A stretch of DNA of 38,955 nt from a virus (taxonomy: Duplodnaviria > Heunggongvirae > Uroviricota > Caudoviricetes). Both the position numbers and the translations under genes were made by a program. Shown piece after piece: positions 551 to 26,091 of this stretch. Below the pieces are notes generated by a model, which had not been told where the DNA came from, did no database searches, and saw only the letters and a list, made by a program, of their open reading frames with translations. Location of the stretch: IMG/VR virus record IMGVR_UViG_2939127364_000004; one strand, given 5' to 3'. Position 1 is the first letter of the stretch. Each line of letters begins with the position of its first letter.

Positions 551-1081
551 ATGTCTCAAATTTTTGCTTACTGTCGGATATCAACGCTGGATCAGACCAC
601 CGAAAATCAACGCCGGGAAATCGAAAGTGCAGGTTTTAAAATCAAACCTCAGCAAATAATCGAAGAACACATTAGTGGCTCAGCAGCAACCAGTGAGCGT
701 CCTGGTTTTAACCGGTTGCTTGCTCGCCTGAAATGTGGTGATCAATTGATTGTGACAAAACTGGATCGCCTTGGTTGTAATGCAATGGATATCAGGAAAA
801 CAGTGGAACAACTGACCGAAACAGGTATCAGAGTGCATTGCTTAGCATTGGGGGGCATTGACCTGACCAGTCCAACAGGAAAAATGATGATGCAAGTAAT
901 TTCAGCAGTCGCTGAATTTGAACGAGACCTTTTACTTGAACGCACTCATTCCGGGATAGTAAGAGCCCGCGGCGCAGGGAAACGTTTTGGTCGACCACCT
1001 GTGTTAAATGAAGAACAGAAACAGGTGGTATTCGAACGAATTAAGGAAGGTGCGAATAAGTACCCTCCGCAACGAAAATGA
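551..1081 (+). CDS. pinR: Serine DNA invertase (Pin/Gin/Hin family), C-terminally truncated: HTH DNA-binding domain replaced by IS5-IR-derived codons
   Basis: N-terminal resolvase catalytic domain ([11 protein letters not shown] ... KLDRLGCN ... [21 protein letters not shown]); reading frame runs into GGAAGGTGCGAATAAG at 1045 and stops at 1079-1081, about 20 aa short of full-length PinR/PinQ as recalled. Confidence 0.75.
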
Positions 1082-1153
1082 AACTTTTAGTCAATTAAAT
1101 TCAATCACTTACATAGGCGTTTTTTTGCGTTTGGTGACTTATTCGCACCTTCC
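1045..1153. mobile_element. IS5 terminal-inverted-repeat remnant: two 16-bp IS5 IRs in inverted orientation around a 77-bp non-IS5 spacer, no target-site duplication
   Basis: GGAAGGTGCGAATAAG at 1045-1060 and its exact reverse complement CTTATTCGCACCTTCC at 1138-1153; identical to the IR at the right end of the intact IS5 at 17503-17518; flanks TTAA and CAAG differ. Confidence 0.6.
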
Positions 1154-1457
1154 CAAGAGTCTCTGCATAAGGAAGGTTATTCTGGATATAAATAACTCCG
1201 TAATTTGCAGCTTTCGAAATAACCCCGATCCCACGCTGAACCGCAATCGTACCGTTCGGATCCACGTTATCAGATATACCAAAATCGGGATGCTGTAACG
1301 ACACCAGGTTGTTATTTCTGAAACGTCCGGTATCAACCGGAGCAGCAATATCAATAGCAGTAAGAATCTGCATAGCGATGTAGCGAATTTTCAGCCCCAC
1401 ATCTTCCTCAATCATCCCGGCAAATATTGACGGTTCTATATCCCATGCCTTTGCCAT
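1101..1457 (-). pseudogene. Phage head-completion / head-tail joining protein whose last ~18 codons are encoded by the IS5-IR remnant (fusion/truncation)
   Basis: ATG at 1457 directly after stop of upstream gene; C-terminal GKVRISHQTQKNAYVSD is translated from the IR and 77-bp spacer; last gene of head operon before the deletion junction. Confidence 0.4.
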
Positions 1458-1841
1458 TTACGCTCTCCTTAACTGGATAGAGTAAACTGATGCGGAAGGA
1501 TCTACACTCGCTGTAATTACCTCGTATCGTTGTAACTGCCTTAATACAGGATCATAAATCTCAATAATATGGTCGACAGCGGATTTATCCGTAACCTCGC
1601 ATACCAGAGCGGTTAATTTAAGGTCACCATGCAAAATATTAATCCCATCAATTCTGCCCAGCTTATAACGTGTCAACACGCCTCGCCCGGTATAGATTGC
1701 GGTGGATTCGCCGCCAGTTTCCGTCACAGGATCCCAGTGCCGGTGCGTAACGTAAGAACCAGAAAAATCACTCACGGCGTCCGCTAAATCCTCATCAAAA
1801 GCAGCGGCAACCTCTGACTGAATCTCTTCACGAAGCCCCAT
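1458..1841 (-). CDS. Hypothetical phage head-tail protein (127 aa)
   Basis: ORF in head operon; start ATG 1841 overlaps stop of upstream gene by 1 nt (TAATG). Confidence 0.45.
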   Translation of the reverse strand: MGLREEIQSEVAAAFDEDLADAVSDFSGSYVTHRHWDPVTETGGESTAIYTGRGVLTRYKLGRIDGINILHGDLKLTALVCEVTDKSAVDHIIEIYDPVLRQLQRYEVITASVDPSASVYSIQLRRA

Positions 1842-2236
1842 TATCCCCCCCTCACAACCCTGACTTGTGAGCGACTAAGTCCGTACGGTTTCAGCAGTGC
1901 TATCGCAAGCTGTAAATCGGGTTCAAGCAATACAGTGCTGTTTGCTGGCAACTCAGCAAATGATTTCGATACACTGACCCCGTCAGCCGACACGGCTTTA
2001 CTGATAACAACGCCAGAATCATTTTTCTGCTGAAACAACTTACCGAATGAGGCAATTCTGGCTGCATATGCTCCCGCAAGTTTTACCTCTTCCGGAATAC
2101 GGGATGGGTTAATTTTCAGGTTGAAGCCATTAAGCCAGGCATTAGCCATTAAAACAGCTTTATTTTTAGCGTTCTCACTCGTCCAGGCGTTCCCAAACGC
2201 ATTATCAACGTCATCACAGGTCACGTAAGTGATCAT
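1841..2236 (-). CDS. Putative head-tail connector / DNA-packaging protein (gp6-like, 131 aa)
   Basis: ORF with AGGAG SD 7 nt upstream of ATG 2236; position after coat gene; weak resemblance to gp6-like connector N-termini. Confidence 0.4.
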   Translation of the reverse strand: MITYVTCDDVDNAFGNAWTSENAKNKAVLMANAWLNGFNLKINPSRIPEEVKLAGAYAARIASFGKLFQQKNDSGVVISKAVSADGVSVSKSFAELPANSTVLLEPDLQLAIALLKPYGLSRSQVRVVRGG

Positions 2237-2239
2237 GTG

Positions 2240-2416
2240 TTACTCCTGAGTTTTCCAGCCCATAGCCTTCCAGTTGTCAACTTCATCAGGATGAACATTA
2301 GCGATAGTTGGTGCGCCGGGAAACATCTGATAATCGGTCACCATAACCACTAACTCAATTTGCGTTTTTTGTGCGGCTTCACGCTGTGCTCTTTGCTCTT
2401 TAGTTAATCCGGCCAT
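2240..2416 (-). CDS. Small phage protein (58 aa) between coat and connector genes, not in the supplied ORF track
   Basis: ATG at 2416 preceded by GGAGGG SD; translates MAGLTKEQRAQREAAQKTQIELVVMVTDYQMFPGAPTIANVHPDEVDNWKAMGWKTQE without internal stop; 3' end overlaps the SD of the next gene. Confidence 0.3.
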   Translation of the reverse strand: MAGLTKEQRAQREAAQKTQIELVVMVTDYQMFPGAPTIANVHPDEVDNWKAMGWKTQE

Positions 2417-2426
2417 ATGCCCTCCA

Positions 2427-2450
2427 TTAAAAATGGGGCCGAAGCCCCGT
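2427..2450 (-). terminator. Intrinsic terminator after major capsid gene (GGGGC-UUCG-GCCCC hairpin plus U-run)
   Basis: On minus strand ACGGGGCTTCGGCCCCATTTTTAA immediately 3' of coat stop at 2459. Confidence 0.55.
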
Positions 2451-2458
2451 TTGAATGT

Positions 2459-3598
2459 TTAACCAAGAATCAGACAACCATGTGCCGGCTTCACTGATGA
2501 AACACCCCATGCCAGTCCAACTTCATAGCGCACCTGGCGATACTGACGATACAGTGCAATCTGGAACGTAATCCCTGAAATCGGGTCCGTAACATTCATT
2601 ACATCATCAGCATTATCGCCACCTTCCGGCATTGCCGGAGTACGGGATGCCAGCAGAAACGCGTTGCGATCAAACGCCATATTTGCCGTAAAGGCCCCAA
2701 CAACTGTGATGGCAGTATCATCGGCCAGATCCTGACGCAGTCCGGGCGCTGCAAGAGTAATCAGATTGCTGGTCGCTGCTGCCACAACATACTGATTCGG
2801 ATCACCAGCGAACGTAACAATCTGCCCTGCAGAAATACTCCCCGAACCAGTATCAATGGAAATAAGAACATCGCCTTCTTTTTTCTCTCCATTCACGAGA
2901 TAACCAGTTGCAGCAACCTTTGGCGCTCGTTTCACACCTGCCGAACTGTGAATATTGAATCCCTCCAGACGCCCCAACACGCCCTCACGCAGTAGCTGTT
3001 CAGTGCCGGATTCATTCACTTTAAACAATACAGACTGTTTTCCGCGCAAATTAGCAATGGCAGTGGAGCCAAGCACCATCTGCAGATCGGTTGTCGGTGC
3101 GCCGTTATCCTCCAGAACCTGACGAGCCAGAGCAGCATCAGAAAGATCATCTTTAACACCAAACGGCGTTGTCCCTGCGGTTCCCACGGCGCGGGAAGCA
3201 CCGAAATACAACGCACCAAGATCAGCCTCAACCTCGTTTGCAAGGGCGCGAAAAGCCTGCTTGAACTGATCAGCCAGAATGGTGTTGTAAGTCCCTGAAG
3301 GGCCAAGAGCCAGTTGTTCTTCACCATTCCATTTAACCGGTGCCATTTTGGATTTAGTAATTTTTACATCAACAGTGCCAATATTTTGATCACCGGTATT
3401 CGGAGCTGACGGCCCCGGTACGATATCTTCGGTTTTCGCCTCAGGCGCAACTGGCGCGGTTACCGTCTGATCTTTTGCTGCGGCGTCAGCTTTTGCGTTT
3501 TTTGCTACCGCAGGGATAAAACCTACCTGCTCACGGGATACAACATCCAGGGCGGTATAAATAGTCGGGATCAACCCGGTCAGGGTATTTCCAGCCAT
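2459..3598 (-). CDS. Major capsid (coat) protein
   Basis: 379-aa ORF from ATG 3598 (SD AAGGAATAT) rather than the extended ORF start at 3691; follows scaffold gene and is followed by a strong terminator; Ala/Gly-rich capsid-like composition. Confidence 0.65.
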   Translation of the reverse strand: MAGNTLTGLIPTIYTALDVVSREQVGFIPAVAKNAKADAAAKDQTVTAPVAPEAKTEDIVPGPSAPNTGDQNIGTVDVKITKSKMAPVKWNGEEQLALGPSGTYNTILADQFKQAFRALANEVEADLGALYFGASRAVGTAGTTPFGVKDDLSDAALARQVLEDNGAPTTDLQMVLGSTAIANLRGKQSVLFKVNESGTEQLLREGVLGRLEGFNIHSSAGVKRAPKVAATGYLVNGEKKEGDVLISIDTGSGSISAGQIVTFAGDPNQYVVAAATSNLITLAAPGLRQDLADDTAITVVGAFTANMAFDRNAFLLASRTPAMPEGGDNADDVMNVTDPISGITFQIALYRQYRQVRYEVGLAWGVSSVKPAHGCLILG

Positions 3599-3696
3599 AA
3601 TTAAATATTCCTTAAAAATTTGCGTAATTGTGAATAGATGGAGTAATGAGCTATCCAGCCCTGACACCAGCTCCCATCCGGAAGCTGACAAATGTG

Positions 3697-4461
3697 TTAA
3701 TCAACGATTGTGATACCGTCTTTCAATGCGTTTTGCTTACCTGCAACATCCAGTGCATCAAAAGCAGAGCGTTTCATCGTTTTCTGACCAATATCATGCT
3801 GTGTCGGACGGGAGCCGCCGCCATTGTTGCCACTGGCTTTCAGGATGTAGTCTTTCTGAGGGTAATTTTCGACAAGGAACTCCAGCGCCTCATCAAACTG
3901 CGCCAGTTCGCCAGGCTTCGCGCGGGAATAAATTTTGTTGCCGGAAGCGTCATAAGCAACGATCCTCCCTTCTTCCACTTTGAATGCCTGCCCGAAGCGG
4001 GCTTGTAATAAATCTGCCGGGATCGCAATTTTATCGGCAATATATTTTGAACCCGCAAAACTACCGCCAATCATAGAATCGTAAAGCTGCTTCTCCAGCA
4101 TCTGAGAGCGTTGCTTTTCTTCATCTAATTGCTGCTGAAAATTTTTCGTAATTTCTGCCTTAACCTGGTCAACCTGTCCCGCATCGAGCAGCTTTTTCTG
4201 GTCGATTTTTGACAGCATTTCCAGTGCCTCGATCGCCTTCTTCGGGTCTTCGATAGCGGCAAACTTAGCCAGTTTTTCCTCTGCAGCTTCTTTAGCCAGG
4301 CGATGATTTTTTGCCTCGCCATTAAGCTCTGTAATTTTTTTTGTCGCCAGCGGTGCATCGAAGCCAATTTCTTTACCATCGTCGTGCACATAAACTGGCA
4401 GGCCAGCAGTATCAATTTCTGCGTATTGTTTTCCGTTAATCTCGACCGTTTTCAGTTTCAT
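3697..4461 (-). CDS. Scaffolding protein
   Basis: 254-aa ORF from internal ATG 4461 (MKLKTVEING), charged coiled-coil-like sequence (EKQRSQMLEKQLYD), located between head-morphogenesis and coat genes. Confidence 0.6.
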   Translation of the reverse strand: MKLKTVEINGKQYAEIDTAGLPVYVHDDGKEIGFDAPLATKKITELNGEAKNHRLAKEAAEEKLAKFAAIEDPKKAIEALEMLSKIDQKKLLDAGQVDQVKAEITKNFQQQLDEEKQRSQMLEKQLYDSMIGGSFAGSKYIADKIAIPADLLQARFGQAFKVEEGRIVAYDASGNKIYSRAKPGELAQFDEALEFLVENYPQKDYILKASGNNGGGSRPTQHDIGQKTMKRSAFDALDVAGKQNALKDGITIVD

Positions 4462-4518
4462 ATTAGTACCTGGTTTAAGTCTTCCGACAGTTACGCTGCT
4501 CACCATCCGGATCGCAGC

Positions 4519-4546
4519 AATAAAAAAGGCCACCCGAAGGTAGCCT
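4519..4546 (-). terminator. Intrinsic terminator/attenuator between head-morphogenesis and scaffold genes (UUCG tetraloop hairpin plus U-run)
   Basis: Minus strand AGGCTACC-TTCG-GGTGGCCT followed by TTTTTTATTG. Confidence 0.45.
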
Positions 4547-4565
4547 GTTGTAATAAATGATTTAT

Positions 4566-5681
4566 TTAAATCCCTGCTTTTCTGAATACCTGTGCATCAC
4601 GCTCACGGAGCTGCTTCAGCGTCAGCCATTCGCCTTTATCGGTGTAAAATTCATCTGGCGACATACCACCATCCCGAATCAGCTTTGCTCGGGTTTCCCC
4701 CACAATCTGTTTTTGTCTGGTGTAAGGCTGACGCAAAAACCATTCCCTGTAGGTTGTATCTCCGGCCACCACGCCATCCATGCTGGCCCGCTCAGCCGGG
4801 GAAATATCGCGAACATCAATACCCAGTTCCTTCGCTGATTTCAGAATGAACGTTTCCGTTGAGCGGCAGCAGAAATGAATTTTTCCCGGCCCCTGCAAAT
4901 AAGGCACGCTGTGACCTACAGGTTTATTATTCAGCGTATATTTGAGGCGATCCCTGATTCGACATTGTGGCGTAGTACGATTATCAAGCGTTGATAACCA
5001 TTGCTTACCCTTAATCAAATCATTATTCGCGCTGGCAAAACTCTCACGGGCAGTAGCAGCAAGATGTCCAACCGCTGTTTTTGCAATGCTGGCCGCATTA
5101 GCCCGGCTCATCTGCAATGCACCATCCTGAAATCCCTTACTGACATGTCCCCGAATTTTTCTTGCGATCTGCTCATTGGTATCCCCCAGCAAAAAACCCT
5201 GACGCACTGTATTTGTTATGCGTCTGAGCCGATCCGCCTCAAGATCTGAGGCCCACTCACTGAGCAGTCGTCCCTGGAATGGTCGCGCCATTGCAGCGGC
5301 ATAAAGTGCATCAGGAGAGATACCAACCAGAGGGTGAACATCAGCAACAAAATCAGGTAGCATAGAATCAAACAGACTTAACTGATAACCAGCCTCATAA
5401 ATTGCCAGCTCGTTCAGCTCTCCGGAGAGACTGGTAAACATGCTGTTAATAGCAGTGCGGTTAACCTTTCTGACGCTCGCCAGAAGTGACTCCAGGCGCT
5501 TAACGGTAAAATTACCTGGATCGAGGCTGTCCAGTGCTATCAGCAGGCGAGCAGTAAGTTCCGCATCGCTGTCATTCAGTATTTTCACCATTCTGGCAGC
5601 CACGCCAGTGCTATAGCGGGATATCCAGACTGCATGAGCAATTGATTCATCACGCAGCCGTTCATTCACGGTTTGCATCAT
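4566..5681 (-). CDS. Phage head morphogenesis protein (Mu gpF / SPP1 gp7 family)
   Basis: 371 aa; C-terminal GKIHFCCRSTE resembles the H-x-NCRC motif of the Mu F-like domain; follows portal with overlap. Confidence 0.65.
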   Translation of the reverse strand: MMQTVNERLRDESIAHAVWISRYSTGVAARMVKILNDSDAELTARLLIALDSLDPGNFTVKRLESLLASVRKVNRTAINSMFTSLSGELNELAIYEAGYQLSLFDSMLPDFVADVHPLVGISPDALYAAAMARPFQGRLLSEWASDLEADRLRRITNTVRQGFLLGDTNEQIARKIRGHVSKGFQDGALQMSRANAASIAKTAVGHLAATARESFASANNDLIKGKQWLSTLDNRTTPQCRIRDRLKYTLNNKPVGHSVPYLQGPGKIHFCCRSTETFILKSAKELGIDVRDISPAERASMDGVVAGDTTYREWFLRQPYTRQKQIVGETRAKLIRDGGMSPDEFYTDKGEWLTLKQLRERDAQVFRKAGI

Positions 5682-7068
5682 TGATTTCCATCAGCATTAC
5701 ACTCTGATTTTTTAATTCATCGATCACTTCCTCTGGACGGGAATCCTGATCGATAAATTTCAACGCCTGCAACACCCGAACCGCATCAATCTGACGTATA
5801 TTACCGCCCTGACGCAATGACTGAACAGCCAGCGCGGAGGATGAGTCAAACACCTGGGCAGATACATCCAGTTCAGTGCGCACATCCACATTGCCACCGC
5901 AACTCTCTCCGATCCATTCCGCCATTATCTGGAGAATATTATCGAGGGCATCTTCGAGGGAGTTCGCCATTGTATAAAGCGGCGAGTTTTCCTGCATTCG
6001 CTCTTCATTAGTCTGATCAACAGATTTGGTGGATGTATTTTCAGCACGCAGAAGTTTAGCGCCGGCATGACGCATCTGATTTTCCAGCTTCTCAAGTGAT
6101 GTTTCGCCAGATTCTATCGCTGCGCCACTATGTTCAACATATTCGAGGCCATTTTTTGTTCTGTCCTCAAAAATCGTAGCGGTGGATGCACCAACCGTCA
6201 GTTCTTCATTCCTGTCCAGCCCGTAGGCCACCAGCAATGGAACGCGGGCAACATGAAGAATATTGTCCTGCTCGCTCTGGCTTTGCCAGTGCTTGATATT
6301 CAGCAAGCCAAGATTAAGCAATGGCGGTGTACCACGCATAAATCCTGTTTTCTTCGTGTACAGTGTTACCAGAGGAATATCATCACGGCTGGTATTCCAT
6401 GACTCATGAAGCGTCCAGACAGATTCGCCATTAGTGCCTTCGCTACGTCGATAAATTTCAACTCGACGGGGCATAATATGGCGGATCTGCTCCACCTTCT
6501 TCTGCCCGAAATCATCACCATCAATAATGATGACCTCTTTTATACGCAAATCAGTGAGAACAACTTTCCCTTTTTCAACTTTCGATTTCCATCCAATAAC
6601 CTGGCGTGGATTCAGCATCGTAACGTACGGACGACCACCGGTCGCGTTTTCATCGGCTTTTGTACGAATCTCTTTCATATCCGTTCGTGGATAGTCCACC
6701 AGCGCATGTGCCACACCATACTGAAATGCGAGGCTGAAAAATTGCTGCGCCCACACATCCAGTCGGCTCCCCTCCATGTCGATATTTTCTGCATATTCCC
6801 TGATTTTTGCCGGCGTTTCCTCACTCAATACTGTCGGCTCTGCAAATATGCGCCCAATATTTTGCTTGATGCTTTCTTCATACACAGGAAGTAGCGTAGC
6901 CACAGACAGGCGTTTTTTATAAGCGTCTTCATCTTCGTTAGGCCATTTTGGGAGATAATTTTCCCCCTGCCTGCGCATTTCAAGCGTACCGCCCATCAGT
7001 GCGTCGTTAATATCCCACGCCTCCAGCATATCGTTATAGTCGAGGTTGGGTGTTGATATATCAGCCAT
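5662..7068 (-). CDS. Portal protein
   Basis: 468-aa ORF immediately downstream of terminase large subunit, ATG 7068; acidic C-terminus; canonical position. Confidence 0.7.
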   Translation of the reverse strand: MADISTPNLDYNDMLEAWDINDALMGGTLEMRRQGENYLPKWPNEDEDAYKKRLSVATLLPVYEESIKQNIGRIFAEPTVLSEETPAKIREYAENIDMEGSRLDVWAQQFFSLAFQYGVAHALVDYPRTDMKEIRTKADENATGGRPYVTMLNPRQVIGWKSKVEKGKVVLTDLRIKEVIIIDGDDFGQKKVEQIRHIMPRRVEIYRRSEGTNGESVWTLHESWNTSRDDIPLVTLYTKKTGFMRGTPPLLNLGLLNIKHWQSQSEQDNILHVARVPLLVAYGLDRNEELTVGASTATIFEDRTKNGLEYVEHSGAAIESGETSLEKLENQMRHAGAKLLRAENTSTKSVDQTNEERMQENSPLYTMANSLEDALDNILQIMAEWIGESCGGNVDVRTELDVSAQVFDSSSALAVQSLRQGGNIRQIDAVRVLQALKFIDQDSRPEEVIDELKNQSVMLMEINDANRE

Positions 7069-7070
7069 AA

Positions 7071-8372
7071 TTAAATCCGAAGTGATGTGACTCTTCCGGT
7101 CGGTTTGACAATAGGGAATTGCTTAACGATGAAATAACCTCCGGCATCATTCGGGTGATCATTGCCAGATTTTTTATCAGGCTCCCCCTTCTCATCCCAG
7201 ACCTGTTGCTCCAGAGATTCGGCATATAACGGGCAACGCTTCACATTAACTTTATAGCGACGCTCACCATTGGCATTGCAGAACATTGCATTCATTGAGT
7301 TAACGCGATCTTTTACTGGCGGGTTCGAGCTGTTCACCACAACGTTAAAACCAGCCTGCTTAAGCTGGGCTATATCCGTCGTACTTGCGTTACTTGATTT
7401 TCTGGAATCCCCGGAAGCATCTGGATAAATATAAATTTCCCTCACTTTCCGGTAATCATTCCCATCATACAGCCAGAAGCGTTCTTTAATGATGCGGATC
7501 ATATCCGGCGTATCGTAGGCATTGATGATTTCAGTTACCGCACATGGAAGCCCCAAACGCAGCACATGGACGATTCCCGCCATCTTTCCAACGTTAAAAT
7601 CCATCCCAATATAAATCGGCTCCCCTGGCTGCTCCACTTCTTCGCAATTATTCAGTTTCCGGTCAAACTGATGGTAAACAGTACCACTTGTCAGGTTAGT
7701 AAACTGTCCTCGAAGATAGGCTTTAATCAGCTCTGGAGGGTATGATTCAAGAAGCGAAGGAATGTAATCTGCTGGCAGGTTCTTTTCATTATCGAAAGTA
7801 GATGCCTGCACCAGACCATACAGTGAGGCCAGCTCTGTTTTTTCACGCACGGCTTTAACAAACTGCTCGTAGACAAATTTGAATCCTTCCGGCGTGGTTG
7901 TAACGTCAATACCGTTGCGAAGTCCATCAATCTTATAACGCATACGTGCAATTATCTTGCGCCACGCCGTTCTGGCTTTTTCCTTCGGCAAAATGTCCAG
8001 TTCATCCACCAACGCATTACCAATTTTGAAACCGACGATCGTTTGTGGCTTCTCCATCGATCTGCAGATAGTGGTTCCCCGATACTGGCGTCCGTAATAA
8101 AAGTGAACCTCTTTATTTCCCTCATTAATTTTTACGTTCAATCCCCAGTCAGCAGCAACTTCTTCCACTGTAGGGTAAAAAATATCGCGAATTTGGGGAT
8201 ACGTTGGCGCAAAATATCCCTGATTTATACCTGGATGCTCCCAAATCCCCTTGCATATGCCGCCACACCCAACCCATGTTTTGCCCGAGCCAAAACCAGC
8301 AATATAGGCTTTAAATTTATGGGGCATTGAAAGAAATCGCGCCTGAGGCACATTAAGCGTCGGAGAGATCAT
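7071..8372 (-). CDS. Terminase large subunit
   Basis: Walker A motif GFGSGKT near N-terminus, nuclease-like C-terminal half; AAGGAG SD gives best spacing (8 nt) to ATG at 8372; ORF track extends to 8381. Confidence 0.85.
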   Translation of the reverse strand: MISPTLNVPQARFLSMPHKFKAYIAGFGSGKTWVGCGGICKGIWEHPGINQGYFAPTYPQIRDIFYPTVEEVAADWGLNVKINEGNKEVHFYYGRQYRGTTICRSMEKPQTIVGFKIGNALVDELDILPKEKARTAWRKIIARMRYKIDGLRNGIDVTTTPEGFKFVYEQFVKAVREKTELASLYGLVQASTFDNEKNLPADYIPSLLESYPPELIKAYLRGQFTNLTSGTVYHQFDRKLNNCEEVEQPGEPIYIGMDFNVGKMAGIVHVLRLGLPCAVTEIINAYDTPDMIRIIKERFWLYDGNDYRKVREIYIYPDASGDSRKSSNASTTDIAQLKQAGFNVVVNSSNPPVKDRVNSMNAMFCNANGERRYKVNVKRCPLYAESLEQQVWDEKGEPDKKSGNDHPNDAGGYFIVKQFPIVKPTGRVTSLRI

Positions 8373-9447
8373 CTTCATCACTCCTTACTCTGGCATCAAC
8401 CACATTAATATTGATCGCCACAGGCTGGGGATGTTCATTATCTTCCACCGTTTCGATCTCTTTGCGCAGCTTCTGGTTTTCCATTCTGCGCCGTTCAATT
8501 TCCAGTTCCTGTAGCCGTTTATCTGCACATAAAGCCCCGCCAGCAGAAAACAAACGCAACAATTCACGCCGGGCGGCAGCCTTATCCTCCAGCAGGATCT
8601 CAACGCCGAATTTTCCGAATTTTGCCCCTGCATATAATTGCCGCGCATCCCCATCAAGCAGAGTGGTATCAGCCATATAAAGCTGTCCCGTTCCCTCACC
8701 GCAGCACTTCGGGCAGTCCGGATTGGGTATGGCGTTATCAACAAAGCCGAGGCCTCCATATTCCGGTTCGGGTTTGCCATCTCTGGAAGCCTGCGCCGCT
8801 GCCTTGTCGAATTCTGCTATATCGCGCCACTGGTAGAGATGATTCTCGCCCCAGCAATAACGGCAGTTAACACGGCGAAATTGTGCAAGCTGATTGGGGT
8901 CGGCCAGGACAATAGCCATCAACTGACTCACTAGTAAATCCAGGTCTGCGGTATAGCGTTTCTGGTACTGATTGCGGAAGTAGCTGATAGCGCGAAAAAC
9001 CCTGGCATTTCTAAGCATACGACTGGCGTTGCTGTTAGCTGTCGCACCTTGCCCCTCATAACCGGCTAGTCGGTACGCCTCTGTCGGCTTTTTACCCTGA
9101 GCAACAAGCATCGCAAACTTAGCCTGCTGGTCAGAAATGCCGAATTCATCGGGACAGAACGAAAATTCCTCCGCGTCGCCCTCATTCAGGCCCGCATCGA
9201 ATACTGGCTTTTTTTCCTGAGATTTTTCGTTCCGCTTTTGTGCAGTCTGCGCAGATTTTTTCTGCGCACTTTTTTGCGCAGTTTTGCACATTTCTGTCTG
9301 CGCATTTTTCGGAGTTTTTTTGATGTAACGACGGGCTGTTGCGTAATTCAGTCCCCTTGCTTCACACCATGCCACCGGAGATATACCGGAGCGGGTGTAT
9401 TCAGCAATATACTCCTGCTGCAACGCCCCCCAGTCCGGTCTGCTCAT
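8353..9447 (-). CDS. Terminase small subunit with long C-terminal extension carrying a Cys cluster
   Basis: N-terminus LQQEYIAEYTRSGISPVAWCEARGLNYATARRY matches TerS HTH pattern; 364 aa is about twice typical TerS length; C-terminal CRYCW ... CPKCCGEG. Confidence 0.6.
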   Translation of the reverse strand: MSRPDWGALQQEYIAEYTRSGISPVAWCEARGLNYATARRYIKKTPKNAQTEMCKTAQKSAQKKSAQTAQKRNEKSQEKKPVFDAGLNEGDAEEFSFCPDEFGISDQQAKFAMLVAQGKKPTEAYRLAGYEGQGATANSNASRMLRNARVFRAISYFRNQYQKRYTADLDLLVSQLMAIVLADPNQLAQFRRVNCRYCWGENHLYQWRDIAEFDKAAAQASRDGKPEPEYGGLGFVDNAIPNPDCPKCCGEGTGQLYMADTTLLDGDARQLYAGAKFGKFGVEILLEDKAAARRELLRLFSAGGALCADKRLQELEIERRRMENQKLRKEIETVEDNEHPQPVAININVVDARVRSDEDDLSDA

Positions 9448-9450
9448 CAG

Positions 9451-9702
9451 TTAGTCCTGATTTTTATCCACCCTGAGTAGTTCGCGCAGAGCAAAGGCAT
9501 CCCCTTTTCTGGCAAGCTTAAACAATGCCGCTCGTAACTCGGCTTCACCTTTCGCTCTGCCCTTACGGATGGCCGCATAAAAATCTGTCATTGCTTCCCG
9601 ATTTTCTTTCAGTCGGTTCAGATCAACATCCAGAACGTCAGCGATTTGTTGTGCAGTCATCCGGCACGCTGCCAGAGACTCGACTTTCGAATACGGAATC
9701 AT
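9451..9702 (-). CDS. Small HTH-like protein (83 aa) directly upstream of terminase small subunit
   Basis: ATG 9702 with GGGGGTGA SD; MTAQQIADVLDVDLNRL helix-turn-helix-like segment; first 21 codons overlap the 3' end of the upstream gene. Confidence 0.4.
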   Translation of the reverse strand: MIPYSKVESLAACRMTAQQIADVLDVDLNRLKENREAMTDFYAAIRKGRAKGEAELRAALFKLARKGDAFALRELLRVDKNQD

Positions 9703-10570
9703 TTGTCACCCCCATTGATATGCAGGGTGTCTTCTTCCTGTATTTTTCGTGAAGGATTTTTACTGCAGCGTTGTTCCAGGTGACCTGATGGTGAATGCGT
9801 TTATGGCTGGCACCCATCAGTGAGATTTTTACGCACGACGGCGCATACATGACGGAGTAAAAACTTTTAACGTAGGTTCCGGAATCCAGATACAGCTCGG
9901 TCATTCCGCCGCTGTTTTTCTGCGTCTGTTTCTGCCCTAACTGGACAGCACCGATCGTCATAAACAATTCACCACAGCGACCGAGATTCGTGTACGTATT
10001 CACATCCTCGTTAATGCGCCCCATGAATGAGAACGGTCGATCAACCGAACAGATAAAGCTGTTCATTGCCTTGCGTTTCACCCACGAAGCATGGCCGCCA
10101 TTGTCACCAAGAAAATCCCCGCCCTGCGACATAGCGATGGAAAGAGCAGGTATTGATTCGTAGTACGCCAGCATTTCAGAAAGGATCGCATCCAGTTTCC
10201 TTATCGGAAAATAGGCCTGGTCATAGTTGCGATCCACCCGAAACTGGAACTCGTGATAATCATCATCGAGCTGAATGAAGTATTTACACCCGACCAGTTT
10301 TGCCAGGTCGAAACAGGCATTACGGGCGTAAAAAATTGAGCGGCGGTCACAGAAATTATCGGCTTCGTCAAAACGACTGGCGATATCGGCTTTGGAAAAC
10401 ACCAGCACCTGTTCACCAAATTCAGCCATGTACTGATTCCGTGTCTTATCTTCATCATCAACAACGATAAAAATTTTCCCGGTATAGCCAGCACGACGCA
10501 ACGTCCGGTAAGTCAGAACTTTGTCCGGTCGCCCGTGAGTCAGAATAAAGGCGCAAAAATCATCACGCAT
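9638..10570 (-). CDS. GT-A-fold-like nucleotide-sugar transferase candidate (310 aa, soluble)
   Basis: ATG at 10570 with perfect AGGAGG SD; motif order FILTHGRP, IVVDDED, IQLDDDY (DXD) at GT-A-like spacing; no predicted TM segments; start overlaps ParB-like stop by 8 nt. Confidence 0.4.
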   Translation of the reverse strand: MRDDFCAFILTHGRPDKVLTYRTLRRAGYTGKIFIVVDDEDKTRNQYMAEFGEQVLVFSKADIASRFDEADNFCDRRSIFYARNACFDLAKLVGCKYFIQLDDDYHEFQFRVDRNYDQAYFPIRKLDAILSEMLAYYESIPALSIAMSQGGDFLGDNGGHASWVKRKAMNSFICSVDRPFSFMGRINEDVNTYTNLGRCGELFMTIGAVQLGQKQTQKNSGGMTELYLDSGTYVKSFYSVMYAPSCVKISLMGASHKRIHHQVTWNNAAVKILHEKYRKKTPCISMGVTNDSVFESRVSGSVPDDCTTNR

Positions 10571-11354
10571 ATTCCTCCTCCTCACCACCATGCATGATCT
10601 CCACCATGCGCTGCGTCATCCGGACAAATCCATTTTCAATAGCCTGCTGATAATCAATGATCACCAGCGCCGACTCCTCGAAAAAACACTGAATTTCAGA
10701 GGGGGCGTGAGCGTAATAGTCCGCAATTCTGCTGAAATTAAACACCGTGTGACGTTCTGCCGCACACAGGAGGAATTTCTCAATATCAGGCTCAAGGGAC
10801 GCCGAACGTATCCGGCTGATCAGCTCCTGAGTTTTCGTATCGTCGTACAGTTCACTGATATCCGGTTTACCGCCCGACGGCTCATAAACAGGCGTATCAA
10901 TTTTCGTCGTATACGGCTCCTCCTCATTTCCTGTACCGGGCAAAACATCCGTCAACAGTTCATCAATTTCTGTCGGGATGAAGCCTGTCAGGGAGACATC
11001 AAAATCAGCATTGATTAGGTCCGACAGCTCCATCCGCAACAGATCTTCATCCCAGCCAGCATTCATCGGCAGGCGATTATCTGCCAGGCGGTACGCCTTT
11101 TTCTGCTCATCCGTCAGGCCAGACAGAACAATGACCGGAACAGAATCCATTTTGAGCATTTCAGCCGCCATAACACGACCGTGACCCGCAATAATTTCGC
11201 CCTTTTCGTCAATCAGCACCGGATTAGTCCAGCCGAATTGCTTAATACTTTCTACCAGTTGTGCCACCTGCTCAGGGCTGTGCGTCCTGGCGTTGTGCGC
11301 ATACGGTGACAATTCTTGTAATGGGCGATAGACTATCTTTAATTTCTCGCTCAT
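10563..11354 (-). CDS. ParB-like nuclease domain protein (ParB/Srx fold N-terminal domain plus uncharacterised acidic C-terminal domain)
   Basis: N-terminal VYRPLQELSPYAHNARTHSPEQVAQLVESIKQFGWTNPVLI ... GHGR is the ParB N-terminal signature; 263 aa. Confidence 0.7.
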   Translation of the reverse strand: MSEKLKIVYRPLQELSPYAHNARTHSPEQVAQLVESIKQFGWTNPVLIDEKGEIIAGHGRVMAAEMLKMDSVPVIVLSGLTDEQKKAYRLADNRLPMNAGWDEDLLRMELSDLINADFDVSLTGFIPTEIDELLTDVLPGTGNEEEPYTTKIDTPVYEPSGGKPDISELYDDTKTQELISRIRSASLEPDIEKFLLCAAERHTVFNFSRIADYYAHAPSEIQCFFEESALVIIDYQQAIENGFVRMTQRMVEIMHGGEEEEYA

Positions 11355-14260: not shown

Positions 14261-14311
14261 AGCCTCACCTCCGCACGGAACGGATGGCATAGTTATTATG
14301 TGGATTCGCCC

Positions 14312-15217
14312 CTATATTTCCAGACACCTGTTATCACTTAACCCATTACTGGCCCGCTGCCGCAGATATTCCCGTGGCGAGCGATAACCCAGCGCACTAT
14401 GCGGATGCCATTCGTTATAATGCTCGAACGCCTCTGCAAGGTTCTTTGCTGCCGTTAACCCGTCTGGTTTGGGCATGATACTTATGTAGTCACGCTTTAT
14501 CGTTTTCACGAAGCTCTCTGCTATTCCGTTACTCTCCGGACTCCGCACCGCCGTGTTCTTCGGTTCAAGTCCCAACATCCTGGCGAACTGACGTGTTTCA
14601 TTCGCCCGGTAGCATGAACCATTATCCGTCAGCCACTCCACTGGAGACGCCGGAAGCTCGCTGCCAAAGCGGCGTTCCACTGCTCCCAGCATGACGTCCT
14701 GTACTGTTTCACTGTCGAAACCCCCCGTTGTGACCGCCCAGTGCAGTGCCTCACGGTCACAGCAGTCCAGCGCGAACGTGACCCGCAGTTTTTCTCCGTT
14801 ATCACAGCGGAACTCAAACCCGTCAGAGCACCATCGCTGATTACTTTCTTTCACAGCCACTCTGCCGGTATGTGCCCGTTTCGATGGCGGTACAGCGGGT
14901 TTTCGCTCAAGCAACAGCGCATTCTGGCGCATGATCCGGTAAACACGTTTGGCATTGATCGCAGGCATACCATCAAGTTCCGTCTGTCTGCGAAGCAGCG
15001 CCCATACCCGACGATAACCATATGTGGGCAGCTCTCCGATAACATGGTGTATACGGAGAAGCACATCCGTATCATCAGTGTGACGACTGCGGCGGCCATC
15101 CATCCAGTCATCGGTTCGTCTGAGAATGACGTGCAACTGCGCACGCGACACCCGGAGACAACGGCTGACTAAGCTTACTCCCCATCCCCGGGCAATAAGG
15201 GCGCGTGCGCTATCCAC
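14312..15217 (-). CDS. insD: IS2 transposase OrfB (InsD)
   Basis: 301-aa [33 protein letters not shown]..., DDE integrase-type catalytic region. Confidence 0.9.
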
Positions 15218-15540
15218 TTTTTTGCCCGTCCATATTCAACGGCTTCTTTGAGGAGTTCATTTTCCATCGTTTTCTTGCCGAGCAGGCGCTGGAGTTCTTT
15301 AATCTGCTTCATGGCGGCAGCAAGTTCAGAGGCAGGAACAACCTGTTCTCCGGCGGCGACAGCAGTAAGACTTCCTTCCTGATATTGCTTACGCCAGAGA
15401 AATAACTGGCTGGCTGCTACACCATGTTGCCGGGCAACGAGGGAGACCGTCATCCCCGGTTCAAAGCTCTGCTGAACAATTGCGATCTTTTCCTGTGTGG
15501 TACGCCGTCTGCGTTTCTCCGGCCCTAAGACATCAATCAT
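15175..15540 (-). CDS. insC: IS2 OrfA (InsC) HTH protein
   Basis: 121 aa from ATG 15540, [41 protein letters not shown]... Confidence 0.9.
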
Positions 15541-15694
15541 CTGTTCTCCAATGACTAGTCTAAAAACTAGTATTAAGACTATCACTTATTTAAGTGATAC
15601 TGGTTGTCTGGAGATTCAGGGGGCCAGTCTATTATGTGTAGGCTTTCAGACACATCAATCAGAGCCTTAATTGATATATATGCTGGAGACGATG

Positions 15695-15847: not shown

Positions 15848-16243
15848 CTAACCTCGCATGTCAAAGCCAGATTTCTGAAAATCTCTGTAGACTTCCGGAT
15901 TGTTGAAGGCCGGAAATTTGGCTTTATGAGCTGCGGACTTTATCGCTTCGCAATAGGCTTTATCACCGTTACTGGTAGATATTTTTAACGCCGTGCCATC
16001 CTGAGAGAATTCCATATGCAACCTGCATTTTTTCCCTTTCCAGTTATGCGGCTCATCAAGTTTGGCATTAATTGCAGCTCTGATTCCCCGCGCTTGCGCC
16101 CCCCATTCATCCTGATCATCCCAGCGTCCTGAACTGCAACTACCTGTAGCAGTAGTTTTGTGGCAATCTGAAGGGTGTAAAGGTGTGCATCCCGCAACAA
16201 AACCGACCCAAAAAGTCAACATAACGATTTTCTTTAATCCCAC
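15848..16243 (-). CDS. Lipoprotein with TolA C-terminal domain III-like domain (paralog 1)
   Basis: GTG start 16243 with GAGGAG SD; signal peptide MGLKKIVMLTFWVGFVAGC (lipobox VAGC); C-terminal KGKKCRLHMEFSQDGTALKISTSNGDKAYCEAI...PEVYRDF aligns with TolA-III and with paralog 2. Confidence 0.7.
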   Translation of the reverse strand: MGLKKIVMLTFWVGFVAGCTPLHPSDCHKTTATGSCSSGRWDDQDEWGAQARGIRAAINAKLDEPHNWKGKKCRLHMEFSQDGTALKISTSNGDKAYCEAIKSAAHKAKFPAFNNPEVYRDFQKSGFDMRG

Positions 16244-16323: not shown

Positions 16324-17518
<1,195 letters not shown>

Positions 17519-17592: not shown

Positions 17593-18021
17593 TCAGGGTT
17601 TAAAATCCAGCACCCCATTTTGAAATACTTTATATACTTCCGGCGAAGGGGGGGCAGGTATATCAGCATTCTTTATCGCATTCATCGCTTCACGACATAA
17701 ATCGAGGTCTCCACTTTCTCTTTTAACCTCCAGTAGAAGGCCATTCGGGGCCATATGCATTCTCAGTGTACACTCTTTTCCTGAATACTTACTCGCATCC
17801 CCGAACTGTTTTTCGATGGCGCTCTTGATTTGATGGGCATACAGACGGATATCCTCACTAACATCAGAAGTACGTTCAGATGAACTCACATACTGTGTCT
17901 CTATTGCTTTATCGGAGTAATATGATGTACGGTCATGATAATTTGTCGATACAGCATCAGTGCACCCGATAATAATCCCACTAATAATCAACGTAAGAAT
18001 TGATGCGCTACGAAAACCCAT
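17593..18021 (-). CDS. Lipoprotein with TolA C-terminal domain III-like domain (paralog 2)
   Basis: ATG 18021 with GAGGA SD; signal peptide MGFRSASILTLIISGIIIGC; C-terminal YAHQIKSAIEKQFGDASKYSGKECTLRMHMAPNGLLLEVKRESGDLDLCREAMNAIKNADIPAPPSPEVYKVFQNGVLDFKP is roughly half identical to recalled E. coli TolA residues ~335-421. Confidence 0.75.
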   Translation of the reverse strand: MGFRSASILTLIISGIIIGCTDAVSTNYHDRTSYYSDKAIETQYVSSSERTSDVSEDIRLYAHQIKSAIEKQFGDASKYSGKECTLRMHMAPNGLLLEVKRESGDLDLCREAMNAIKNADIPAPPSPEVYKVFQNGVLDFKP

Positions 18022-21838: not shown

Positions 21839-23038
21839 ATGCCATTTGTTATTTATGTGTTTACTATCAGTGCCTTTGCGCTCGGACTCGCGGAATTTGT
21901 CCCCATTGGGCTGACAGACGTTATGGCTCAGGGGTTGTGTGTGGGTGTGGAGCAGACCGGGGCAGCGGTTACAACCTATGCACTGGGGGCAACGTTCGCG
22001 GCACCCGTACTGTCTGCGCTGACAGCAAGCTGGAGCCGGAAAAATGTAATGCTTACAACTGCCGTTGTGTTTACTGCCGGTAGTCTGGCGGCCGCGTTTG
22101 CAGCCACATTACCTCAGCTCCTGTTAGCGCGGTTCATTGCTGGTCTGGGACACGGCCTGTTTCTGGCTGCGGCATCCAGTACCGCAGCTCGTCTTGCTGG
22201 ACCGGGTAAAGCAGGCAGAGCGGTGGCTGTGGTATTTGGTGGCTTTACTCTGGCGATGGCAATCGGCGTACCGCTGAGTACATGGTTGGGGGGGGTGGTC
22301 TCATGGCGTCCAGTTCTCGGCGCTATTGCCGCTTTTGGCGCGTTCGGATTCCTTGGACTGTTGTTCGGTATGAAAGATCCCGTACGCAGCGTGCCCGGTG
22401 AACATAGTGACTCAGCAATGCAGAATATCGGCATGCTGTTTAACCGTAAGTTGCTGGCCGGCGCGCTGGTTACGGTGCTGGCGTATGCAGGCTCGTTTAC
22501 GGATTACACCTTTATCGCACCTATTCTGACGCAGGTGACAGGGGTTACCGGAGCAACGGTGAGTCTGTTTATGCTGGTTTACGGTATTACAGCTGCGGTA
22601 GGTAATATTCTTGGTGGGAAACTTACCGACAGCATGGGGGTTAATCGTGCCAATATACTCATCATTAGCGGCATTGTTGTTGTCGTGCTTGGTATGTGGC
22701 TGCTGTCATCCTCACCGGTGAGCATGGGCATTCTGGTTGCGCTGCTGGGTATGGTGACATTTGCCGCAGTGCCGGCACTGCAGGCCCGTCTGATTGGTGT
22801 CGCTGAGCAACATGCTCCTCATGCGCATGGTGTTGCTGCCGGCCTGAATATTGCGGGCTTCAACTCAGGTATAGCGCTGGGATCAGTACTGGGCAGCATT
22901 ACTATAAGCCACGCCGGTATCGTGTATACCGGTATCAGCGGTGCGATTGTTTCTCTGCTCGGCCTGCTGTTGCTGCTTGCACAAATCCGTCGCAGCCACA
23001 GTCGTAAATTTCAACAGGTTAAAATCGTAGGCCAGTAA
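21839..23038 (+). CDS. MFS transporter (12-TM, 399 aa)
   Basis: AGGAG SD; hydrophobic 12-helix pattern, Gly/Ala-rich, central cytoplasmic loop. Confidence 0.8.
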   Translation: MPFVIYVFTISAFALGLAEFVPIGLTDVMAQGLCVGVEQTGAAVTTYALGATFAAPVLSALTASWSRKNVMLTTAVVFTAGSLAAAFAATLPQLLLARFIAGLGHGLFLAAASSTAARLAGPGKAGRAVAVVFGGFTLAMAIGVPLSTWLGGVVSWRPVLGAIAAFGAFGFLGLLFGMKDPVRSVPGEHSDSAMQNIGMLFNRKLLAGALVTVLAYAGSFTDYTFIAPILTQVTGVTGATVSLFMLVYGITAAVGNILGGKLTDSMGVNRANILIISGIVVVVLGMWLLSSSPVSMGILVALLGMVTFAAVPALQARLIGVAEQHAPHAHGVAAGLNIAGFNSGIALGSVLGSITISHAGIVYTGISGAIVSLLGLLLLLAQIRRSHSRKFQQVKIVGQ

Positions 23039-23049
23039 AGGGAGGTTAT

Positions 23050-23742
23050 ATGCTTACCCGTGAAAATATGCTTAATGGCACATTTGTCAGGGTGCATGAA
23101 GCGCTGCTCCCGGCGAATATGCTCTGGGACGCTGAAAAAATACGCGCATCAATGAACTCTACTCTGGAGGAGCGCCCGACGGGTGCTCCTGTCTGGATAT
23201 TTGCCTACGGGTCATTGATGTGGAATCCCGTGCTGGCGATTGAAGAAATGCAACGGGCCCGTCTGAAAGGATGGCAGCGCAGTTTCTGCATTCGTTTGAT
23301 ATCCGGACGAGCGACTCCTGATGTCCCCGGCAGGATGTTATCGCTCGACGAAGGTGGAATTACCGAAGGTATTGCGTTCAGACTGCCGGAATCGACTCTT
23401 ATTAATGAGCTGGAAATTGTCTGGACGCGCGAGATGATAACCGGTCTTTACCGTCCGGTCTGGGCAGACGTTTCGCTAGGAAACGGTGAGGAAATTCAGG
23501 CGCTGGCTTTCGTATCAGACAGACTGCATCCGCATTATGAACAGGACAATCTTACAGCGACCGTAGCGTTGAGCATCGCATCTGCCCGTGGAGACATTGG
23601 CACGAATGCAGATTATGTATGGAAACTGCAGGCCACTCTGGGTGCGTTGGGAATACGGGATGATTACGTGAGTGAACTGGCCCTTGCTCTGCATGAGGCT
23701 CCCTGTAACGATAAACTTCATCAGCGAGGCGCTTCACTATGA
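23050..23742 (+). CDS. ChaC-family gamma-glutamylcyclotransferase-like protein
   Basis: GGAGG SD; WIFAYGSLMWNP (YGSL motif) and overall similarity to ChaC; 230 aa. Confidence 0.7.
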   Translation: MLTRENMLNGTFVRVHEALLPANMLWDAEKIRASMNSTLEERPTGAPVWIFAYGSLMWNPVLAIEEMQRARLKGWQRSFCIRLISGRATPDVPGRMLSLDEGGITEGIAFRLPESTLINELEIVWTREMITGLYRPVWADVSLGNGEEIQALAFVSDRLHPHYEQDNLTATVALSIASARGDIGTNADYVWKLQATLGALGIRDDYVSELALALHEAPCNDKLHQRGASL

Positions 23743-24620
23743 GCCATCTGAGCCATCTGCGAACGTTTCTTGAGGCCTATCGCTCTGGCTCCTTTTCAAA
23801 GGCGGCAGAACTACTGGGCATCACTCAGCCCGCGGCGTCACAGCATATCCAGTCTCTTGAGACTCTGGTTGGTAAGCGTCTGTTTATCAGGCAGGCCAGA
23901 GGCGTGACGGCAACCGAAGCTGCGGATGAGCTTGCCCGCTCAGTTTCACCCTTCATTGATGGTCTGGAAGAAAAGCTGTCCTCTTTCCGGTCAGGCTCTG
24001 TACGCGGGGGAACAATTAATCTGGCAGGACCGCCAGATTTTATTCATTCCCGGCTTGGGACAGTAATGGCTCCACTAATGAAGGAGGGGTATCGCCTACG
24101 CTTTCATACCGGCAATAAGCAACGTATTTATTCCCTTTTGCATGACGGGAGCGCCGATCTCGCTGTTACCGCATCTATGCCTGATGACCGTCTGTACGGC
24201 TATGCACATCTACTGACTGAACGCATGCTCCTTGTTCATGCTCCCGCCATGTCAGAGATCATCGGATCAGAACCTGGTGCTGAAACGCTTGCCTCATTAC
24301 CGCTGATTGCTTATGACGAAGAGTTGCCACTGATTAGAGCGCTCTGGGCCTCCATGTTTCAGAGAGCCCCTGAGATGCAGGCTACATTCACCATTCCGGA
24401 TTTACGTATTATCCGCGACTTGGTCTGTGACGGCCACGGGTGGACAGTGCTGCCGGATTATCACTGTGACAATGACCTGAAAAGTGGTCGCCTGATTTCA
24501 GTGACACCTGCAGACCTCGCTCCGACTAATCATCTTTATCTGGTCTGGAACAAAAGGACGGCTAATAACAGCCGAACCGCCTATGTTCGGGATTACATTC
24601 TTAAAACGTTTCCGCGTTGA
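23739..24620 (+). CDS. LysR-type transcriptional regulator
   Basis: N-terminal HTH LRTFLEAYRSGSFSKAAELLGITQPAASQHIQSLE; start overlaps ChaC stop (ATGA). Confidence 0.85.
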   Translation: MSHLSHLRTFLEAYRSGSFSKAAELLGITQPAASQHIQSLETLVGKRLFIRQARGVTATEAADELARSVSPFIDGLEEKLSSFRSGSVRGGTINLAGPPDFIHSRLGTVMAPLMKEGYRLRFHTGNKQRIYSLLHDGSADLAVTASMPDDRLYGYAHLLTERMLLVHAPAMSEIIGSEPGAETLASLPLIAYDEELPLIRALWASMFQRAPEMQATFTIPDLRIIRDLVCDGHGWTVLPDYHCDNDLKSGRLISVTPADLAPTNHLYLVWNKRTANNSRTAYVRDYILKTFPR

Positions 24621-24750
24621 TGTTTGAAACGGATGATTGGCGATGCGTATCATAAGTTACGTATGTCCGCTTCTGGCACAAAGCAGACGCCCACTCTCAC
24701 GCGAATGCTTTGCCCTTGACTTGCCAACAACCGTATCGCTTGCTCCGCAA

Positions 24751-26043
24751 CTATGGTTTTTTATTAGAATCTTCGCCACTAAATAAATTATAATAAATTG
24801 ATTTTATTAGATATCTGTCAGAATCTATATGGTCAGCACGAGTAGCATGCTCTAATGTTTCAAATGCTAGGGTTTGTGCGGCTTCAGCAAAAATTCCAGG
24901 CCAACCCTTACTCAGCATCGACAGTCCTTTAAGTACCCTTATCTGAATTTCCCTCATACTGGCACCATCGCGCGCAACAGGTGAGAAAAAGTCTTCAAGT
25001 AGATCGTTATTCTGAAGTGGTGCAACATGTACAGAAGGATATTTCACTTCTATTTCATCAGATTTATTCTGCGCGTAAGCGGAAAGTATACGTACACCTC
25101 TGCCAATGACATCAATGGCGGTTCCTGGATCGTTCACTGCGGGGGAAAGGGCTCGGCAGGCTATTTCGGCCATGACGCTAAGACAAAATCGGGGGTCCTG
25201 AGCAAATGAACGTACATCCGAGACAATAATCGTCTCAAGTAAATCGGTGCTGATTGATGACTCCTGGCCCTGACTCAGGTACAAAACTGGCGTGGACGGA
25301 TGTATGAAACTGCCCGGCTGCGCCACGAGGTATACATGACGGGGATCATTGGTCAGCAGCTTGCTGAGTTTCACCATATCAACATATTCAACATAGCCAA
25401 TCTTTTTCGGATAAACTGCAACCGTTCCTTTCGGCTGTTCATTGTTCTCAAGCCATGGATATCCGCCGAGACAGGGATTTCTTGCTCTCGCAATAAATGT
25501 TTCGATGGCCGCCTGTTCTACTTTTGCCGTTGTCTCACCAACCCTCCCCAGAGAGGTCAAATGCTGTATCCAGCGAAGCAATGTGATGAGGATTAAGGCA
25601 ATGACAACCAGTGTTACAATGAATAAAATGACTCTCCCCCTTTCTCCATAAGCTCCCATATTGAGGGCAATAATCCCTACCAGACTGAAGAGAAAAGAAC
25701 CGATGAAGGTGGCCAGTACATTTTGTGTGGTGACGTCTTCAACAACTAAACGAGTAGCTCTGGGAGTCACATTAGTAGTGGCTGAACCGTAGGCTGTGAC
25801 CATGATGCTCAGCGAAAATGTGGTCACTGCCAGCATACTCGATGCCAGTATGTTCAGAATGTTATCGACTGCTTCCGCACCAACCTTCACGGAAACCGAC
25901 TCAGGTATCATTGATTTAAAAAGAATTGATAAAAGGGCCGTTATTATTGCGACAATTGCGAATAACGTTGCCCTGAACCATAGTTTTTTAAATGTCTGCT
26001 TCAGCATCCATTTCCAGCGTGAAATCATTCTGCATTCCCTCAT
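24751..26043 (-). CDS. DUF2254-family membrane protein (N-terminal TM domain plus soluble C-terminal domain)
   Basis: 430-aa ORF with 4-5 N-terminal TM helices; family from recollection; alternative start at 26028 has better SD. Confidence 0.5.
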   Translation of the reverse strand: MRECRMISRWKWMLKQTFKKLWFRATLFAIVAIITALLSILFKSMIPESVSVKVGAEAVDNILNILASSMLAVTTFSLSIMVTAYGSATTNVTPRATRLVVEDVTTQNVLATFIGSFLFSLVGIIALNMGAYGERGRVILFIVTLVVIALILITLLRWIQHLTSLGRVGETTAKVEQAAIETFIARARNPCLGGYPWLENNEQPKGTVAVYPKKIGYVEYVDMVKLSKLLTNDPRHVYLVAQPGSFIHPSTPVLYLSQGQESSISTDLLETIIVSDVRSFAQDPRFCLSVMAEIACRALSPAVNDPGTAIDVIGRGVRILSAYAQNKSDEIEVKYPSVHVAPLQNNDLLEDFFSPVARDGASMREIQIRVLKGLSMLSKGWPGIFAEAAQTLAFETLEHATRADHIDSDRYLIKSIYYNLFSGEDSNKKP

Positions 26044-26063
26044 ATTGCAGCCGGGATAAATAA

Positions 26064-26084
26064 ATGCCGCCTCTGTGGCGGCAT
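26064..26084 (-). terminator. Intrinsic terminator downstream of BCCT transporter gene
   Basis: Minus strand ATGCCGCC-acaga-GGCGGCAT followed by TTATTTAT. Confidence 0.5.
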
Positions 26085-26091
26085 GTTGCTG

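Follow-up and report, generated by a model that had tools for sequence, protein, structure and literature searches.

A dispersed 109-bp element with IS5-type ends at the apparent deletion junction of a tail-less Rac-type prophage

How does a prophage that retains its head genes come to lack its entire tail module, and what is the short inverted-repeat sequence that lies where the two meet? The window analysed here (the whole stretch of 38,955 nucleotides, IMG/VR record IMGVR_UViG_2939127364_000004) is a whole Rac-type prophage, with ynaE/ydfK (1-234), a pinR-like gene, trkG, lysis genes, sieB, recE, recT and integrase, and with connector, capsid, portal and terminase genes on the minus strand. 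It shares ynaE/ydfK, pinR, trkG, sieB, recE, recT and integrase, in the same order, with the Rac cryptic prophage of E. coli K-12, but differs from it in carrying full sets of terminase, portal, capsid and connector genes and in having no tail module. In K-12 Rac the head genes are absent and the tail-fibre genes are kept. No open reading frame of tape-measure or tail-tip size is left anywhere in the window. A block of non-phage genes at 21839-28095 encodes an MFS transporter, a ChaC-like protein, a LysR regulator, a DUF2254 membrane protein and a 667-aa BCCT betaine/choline-type transporter.

The extent of the loss can be read from the closest relative, the prophage of E. coli W444 (from a pig in Guangdong), which is 100% identical over window positions 1154-11342 and 99.8-99.97% identical elsewhere. 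Between the two flanks W444 holds 17,646 bp that are missing in the window. On the pinR side this interval contains the last 31 codons of pinR, tfaR, stfR and lom, followed by the tail-tip, tail-assembly, minor-tail and tape-measure genes, ydaY, a tail-tube gene split by IS3 and the tail terminator, and at its far end lie the last 25 codons of a 126-aa tail completion/Neck1 gene. A preliminary description of the locus, made from the window alone, had proposed that the tail module and the 3′ end of pinR were missing, and alignment with intact Rac-type prophages bears this out, setting the deleted interval at 17,646 bp relative to W444. The same description pointed to the lack of an invertible segment between the head genes and pin; the segment is indeed absent, but intact relatives have none beside pinR either.

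At the junction, GGAAGGTGCGAATAAG occurs exactly at 1045-1060 on the plus strand and at 1138-1153 on the minus strand. A scan of the window allowing up to two mismatches returned four matches to this sequence, against 0.03 expected and with none of 100 window shuffles reaching four; the remaining two matches belong to a full IS5 (16324-17518), one at each end. The perfect 16-bp inverted repeats, described earlier as lying 77 bp apart, are real, but the arms are in fact 17 nt each (1045-1061 on the plus strand and 1137-1153 on the minus strand), are 100% complementary and have 75 nt between them. The first 16 nt of the left arm equal the IS5 IRL and all 17 equal the IRL of ISEc68. The right arm is also of IRL type, so that both ends read AATAAG, whereas IS5 combines an IRL with an IRR reading AACAAG. 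In uninterrupted pinR, CGAATTAA is followed directly by GTCAGG, and in uninterrupted Neck1, CCGTTTT is followed directly by CAAGAG; neither gene contains the repeats, which are therefore foreign to both. Their earlier identification as IS5-type ends, as opposed to native conserved sequence, is accordingly upheld. The unit spanning 1045-1153 on the plus strand is flanked on the left by TTAA (1041-1044), a canonical YTAR site native to pinR, and on the right by CAAG (1154-1157), a non-YTAR sequence native to the Neck1 gene, at whose first position similarity to other Rac-type prophages restarts exactly. The flanks are thus unlike, as had been noticed, and the unit is without a target duplication.

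The 109-bp unit contains no transposase gene, its sole reading frames being the read-through tails of the flanking genes, and it folds as one long imperfect hairpin (-41.6 kcal/mol, z = -7.65). The absence of IS5 interior sequence, already remarked upon, is confirmed by BLAST (word size 7) against the window's own IS5, in which only the terminal 16-22 bp match, and BLAST against ISEc68 likewise matches only 17-18 bp of the ends. A search of 5,426 complete E. coli genomes recovered the unit, at full length and 100% identity, from 130 places distributed over 31 of them, a single genome carrying as many as 31 copies. Dispersal through many genomes and plasmids, with target duplications of its own, indicates that the unit is a complete copy of a self-contained non-autonomous element (MITE), comprising 17-bp IS5-group repeats and a 75-bp non-coding core.

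The preliminary description had instead taken the 109 bp for a scar, that is, what remained of an IS5 copy once an IS5-mediated deletion had stripped out its interior in place. This would fit the identity of the terminal 16 bp with the IS5 IRL, the IS5 copy in the window and a further copy in the tail region of the relative NT1F31. It is contradicted by an interior that shares nothing with IS5 or ISEc68, the supposed spacer being the core of the dispersed unit, by the two IRL-type ends where an IS5 remnant would have AACAAG at one of them, and by the identical unit at 130 other places with duplications of its own, which implies that the unit predates this locus. We therefore give the scar explanation almost no credence.

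Compared with IS5 itself (IS5 group, 1195 bp, InsH), the MITE has the same terminal 16 bp and 4-bp YTAR duplications, but is only 109 bp long and lacks a transposase gene, internal IS5 sequence and an IRR-type end. IS5 was rejected as the parent of the MITE for want of internal similarity. ISEc68 (IS5 group, 1197 bp), whose IRL is printed as GGAAGGTGCGAATAAGT (PMC6763765), comes closer at the ends, since GGAAGGTGCGAATAAGT(C) matches 17-18 bp of them, one to two more than IS5 does, but it too differs throughout the interior. It was rejected as parent or partner on that ground and because its carriers barely overlap those of the MITE: of roughly 28 E. coli genomes with ISEc68 at ≥99% identity, ET76 alone also appears among the 31 MITE carriers. 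With only this one E. coli genome carrying both, ISEc68 is unlikely to be the usual helper.

The element resembles bacterial MITEs mobilised in trans, such as the Correia elements, RUP, MITEAba12 and Tn3-derived TIMEs including MITESen1, in being small and non-coding, in having terminal repeats that match an autonomous element, and in its target duplications, many dispersed copies, insertion within genes and hairpin-forming transcript, but differs from them in that its ends belong to the IS5 group. Named elements that were considered proved to be different, MITESen1 being a 256-bp Tn3-derived element, MITEAeca1 being 206 bp long and MITEAeme1/2 being related to ISAs1. Full-text literature searches by inverted repeat, core, length and names uncovered no account of a comparable MITE with IS5-type ends, and as ISfinder lay outside the search, the 109-bp MITE is provisionally regarded as undescribed. 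The sole Rfam match was sub-threshold (RF03532, SQ2397; window 1029-1175, minus strand; 23 bits versus a gathering score of 100) and most likely reflects only the long hairpin. A promoter and terminator scan returned nothing in the element, and site counts across the region equalled those of shuffles.

In E. coli, copies reside on both chromosomes and plasmids, within or beside unrelated genes, yiaA, traF, yibH, ptsP, gspC and chbC, among others. In PLSDB the unit, including variants of 75-88% identity, is present on 88 plasmids from nine genera (Enterobacter, Escherichia, Aeromonas, Salmonella, Klebsiella, Vibrio, Citrobacter, Providencia and Raoultella), with those variants found mostly in Aeromonas, and it also occurs at 27 metagenome loci and on 8 viral contigs. 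Among species-representative genomes, the degenerate end pattern was recovered from three Aeromonas species, Enterobacter sichuanensis and one MAG. IS5 is abundant in Aeromonas according to a genome study (PMC5756416). The presence of 100% identical copies, as many as 31 in one genome and common to chromosomes and conjugative plasmids of several genera, points to an active element. One family member, 85% identical, lies on the IncC plasmid pGD31-NDM (NZ_CP031297.1, 129813-129921) with a CTAA duplication, between aph(3')-VIa and sul1 and near blaNDM-1. Another has a TCAG duplication and comes from a contig of 5.3 kb (JARKOR010000150.1) that had been assigned to Candidatus Nanosynbacter, where the binning is probably an error and not a guide to the true host.

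Target duplications were found at 10 of 12 sampled copies from complete E. coli genomes, nine of them perfect and 4 bp long (CTAA, CTAG, TTAG or TTAA) and one of 5 bp. The 5-bp duplication (CTAAG) accompanies a copy that splits gspC in E. coli EA7. Across 51 distinct contexts, identical 4-bp flanks were present in 28, 27 of them YTAR; this is an excess even on the assumption that all flanks are YTAR (binomial p = 5e-6), although many of the unlike flanks come from metagenome contigs, where chimeric joins may have occurred. When ten sequence variants are compared, variation in the terminal 16 nt is 5-10 times lower than in the core. Taken on these sequence comparisons, the MITE family is shown to move as IS5 does, duplicating 4 bp at YTAR. 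Among the collected copies, two near-identical subtypes occur at similar frequency; their left ends read GGAAGG (the window's type, 26 copies) and GGAGGG (21 copies). As most divergent variants carry GGAGGG, the perfect IS5-like left end GGAAGG may be derived.

Against this background, the window copy stands out. It has no target duplication and the sequence held by its relatives is missing exactly between the two ends of the MITE, which together indicate that this copy is a deletion junction. Its effect on the two flanking genes is direct. On the left, pinR' (551-1081, plus strand) encodes a truncated serine recombinase of 176 aa, made up of 165 native and 11 element-encoded residues and ending at a TGA stop at 1079-1081. 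The Resolvase domain is kept (PF00239, residues 4-144, E 2.2e-36), while the HTH_7 match at residues 147-190 of the intact protein has been lost from PinR', native sequence ending at residue 165. The earlier claim that the left repeat ends the pin frame before its HTH is thus right as to the loss of HTH_7, but the stop is supplied by the spacer and not by the repeat. On the right, the truncated Neck1 gene (1101-1457, minus strand) encodes 118 aa in place of 126, with 101 native residues and 17 element-encoded residues that replace the last 25. About 18 codons had been ascribed to the element at the end of the final head-operon gene; this is close in number, but the gene is a connector gene (tail completion/Neck1; PHROGs phrog_169, E 6e-55) and not a head gene. 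The convergent pinR' and Neck1' frames stop 19 bp apart within the element. Gene content suggests that the prophage keeps its head and connector genes together with a PinR deprived of its DNA-binding HTH and a Neck1 protein whose C-terminus is foreign, and with no tail genes left it would be unable to make infectious particles.

Two routes could have led from an ordinary insertion to this junction. For the first, adjacent deletion, the MITE would have entered a complete Rac-type prophage at the TTAA of pinR codons 164-165; an IS5-type transposase acting in trans would then have joined the right end of the MITE to a site elsewhere on that molecule, and the intervening DNA (17.6 kb relative to W444, from the 3′ end of pinR through the whole tail module to the 3′ end of Neck1) would have been lost, leaving the MITE at the junction between the unlike flanks TTAA and CAAG. 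The left TTAA would presumably be a copy of the original target duplication, and the right flank the distal endpoint of the deletion. We consider this history probable, if only by a little. Adjacent deletions are known for IS903 (IS5 family), IS1 and IS10. The window resembles these in its fixed element end, variable distal endpoint, retention of the element at the junction and loss of the target duplication, but differs in that the MITE is non-autonomous and would be acted on in trans.

The second route is homologous recombination across the 109 bp between two directly oriented MITEs, one at TTAA in pinR and the other at CAAG in Neck1, with loss of the tail module and retention of one hybrid copy. 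The substrates for such an exchange exist, given 100% identical copies at up to 31 per genome, and W444 itself carries seven MITE copies. This route would require an ordinary insertion at CAAG, whereas of 27 insertions that bear duplications 26 are at YTAR, one is at TCAG and none is at CAAG. More generally, 12 of 24 duplication-less copies have a non-YTAR flank, compared with one of 27 ordinary insertions (Fisher p = 2e-4), and because recombination between two ordinary insertions would not yield non-YTAR flanks, adjacent deletion is favoured. On the other hand, 11 of 23 duplication-less contexts have two different canonical YTAR flanks, as expected of recombinants.

Further evidence on both routes comes from L054, a 2.9-kb short-read metagenome scaffold (ENA ERZ28622343) that shares the TTAA left flank and an identical pinR-MITE junction with the window and is the one other sequence on record with the exact 176-aa PinR'-MITE fusion. 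Its right flank is a TTAA located 4 bp upstream of the tape-measure gene, corresponding to a 13,950-bp deletion. One fixed end with two distal endpoints favours deletions that grew from a MITE first inserted in pinR, and the count of events points the same way, since recombination would need three insertions and two recombinations in one prophage, as opposed to one insertion and two deletions. However, both L054 flanks are canonical TTAA, which is equally compatible with recombination, and a mis-join across two MITE copies is possible in a scaffold of this type.

A second case was found in E. coli ECONIH5, which has 19 MITE copies. One of them (NZ_CP026202.1, 128767-128875), between ydeP and ydeN, has no target duplication and replaces ~1.09 kb containing the acid-resistance regulators safA-ydeO, a segment still present in more than 5,300 genomes; this locus is a second MITE-marked deletion. 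The replacement of host DNA at a second duplication-less copy supports adjacent deletion, as does the intact transposase reading frame of the window's IS5, while its flanks (CTAG on one side, TTAG on the other) would suit recombination.

No precursor turned up for either route. Neither the 5,426 complete E. coli genomes nor IMG/VR contained a prophage with the MITE only in pinR beside an intact tail, only at Neck1 or only at the tape-measure site. For recombination this means that none of these genomes has a MITE at any of the three sites it would draw on. With no precursor of either kind, a possibly chimeric L054 and two canonical flanks at about half of the contexts that lack a duplication, the recombination route stays a serious rival, although we judge it rather unlikely.

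It could also be asked whether the junction exists at all. An assembler might have joined two MITE copies across the repeat when an intact tail module lay between them: short-read assemblers can be misled by a repeat of 109 bp, mismatched MITE flanks are seen in many contigs from metagenomes, the exact pinR-MITE-Neck1 junction is absent from the 5,426 complete E. coli genomes and the exact Neck1' fusion protein is not on record. However, the window runs unbroken through a 1331-bp IS2 and a 1195-bp IS5, where short-read assemblies normally break, so an artefact is very improbable. The window was probably taken from a long-read or finished assembly, where spanning 109 bp would be trivial.

If adjacent deletion is the correct reading, a transposase is needed, and the window offers a candidate source in trans 15 kb from the MITE. 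The full-length IS5 at 16324-17518 (plus strand, 1195 bp) has a CTAA target duplication and an intact 338-aa transposase reading frame at 16356-17372 (NF033581, 365.8 bits). The identity of the ends suggests that the MITE is mobilised by the IS5 transposase, and it is plausible that this enzyme made the deletion. The IS5 copy sits between two reading frames that each encode a TolA C-terminal domain (15848-16243 and 17593-18021) and is absent from W444.

The decay of prophages by deletion is ordinary, and the interest of the locus lies in the MITE. One event accounts for a Rac-type prophage with a full head module losing both its entire tail and the DNA-binding domain of PinR. The element may also be a tractable natural system for the trans action of an IS5 transposase on a minimal substrate. 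RefSeq annotation at MITE copies consists of either nothing or split and frameshifted genes; pipelines leave the element unlabelled, and the knock-outs and deletions that it causes consequently go unexplained or are taken for IS5 fragments. More broadly, and as a tentative proposal that falls somewhat short of an even chance, these observations could describe an undescribed and expanding family of IS5-ended MITEs, of probable Aeromonas origin, carried into the Enterobacterales on plasmids and mobilised in trans by the IS5 transposase, that in addition to inactivating genes seeds nested adjacent deletions from a fixed end, disarming prophages such as Rac and removing regulators such as safA-ydeO in ECONIH5.

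Other insertion sequences have also entered these prophages. The tail region of this Rac-type family has been struck repeatedly, by IS3, IS5, IS66 and IS903B. For example, in the otherwise intact relative from E. coli NT1F31 a full IS5 separates the tail-terminator gene from the tail-tube gene, at a distance of ~0.5 kb from the right breakpoint of the window. In W444, ynaK carries an IS66 element, which is missing from the window. The window in turn carries the complete IS2 at 14301-15631, with TnpA and TnpB reading frames at 15175-15585 and 14312-15217, respectively; this copy is flanked by a TTATG duplication (14296-14300 and 15632-15636), lies just upstream of an essD-type holin gene and is absent from W444.
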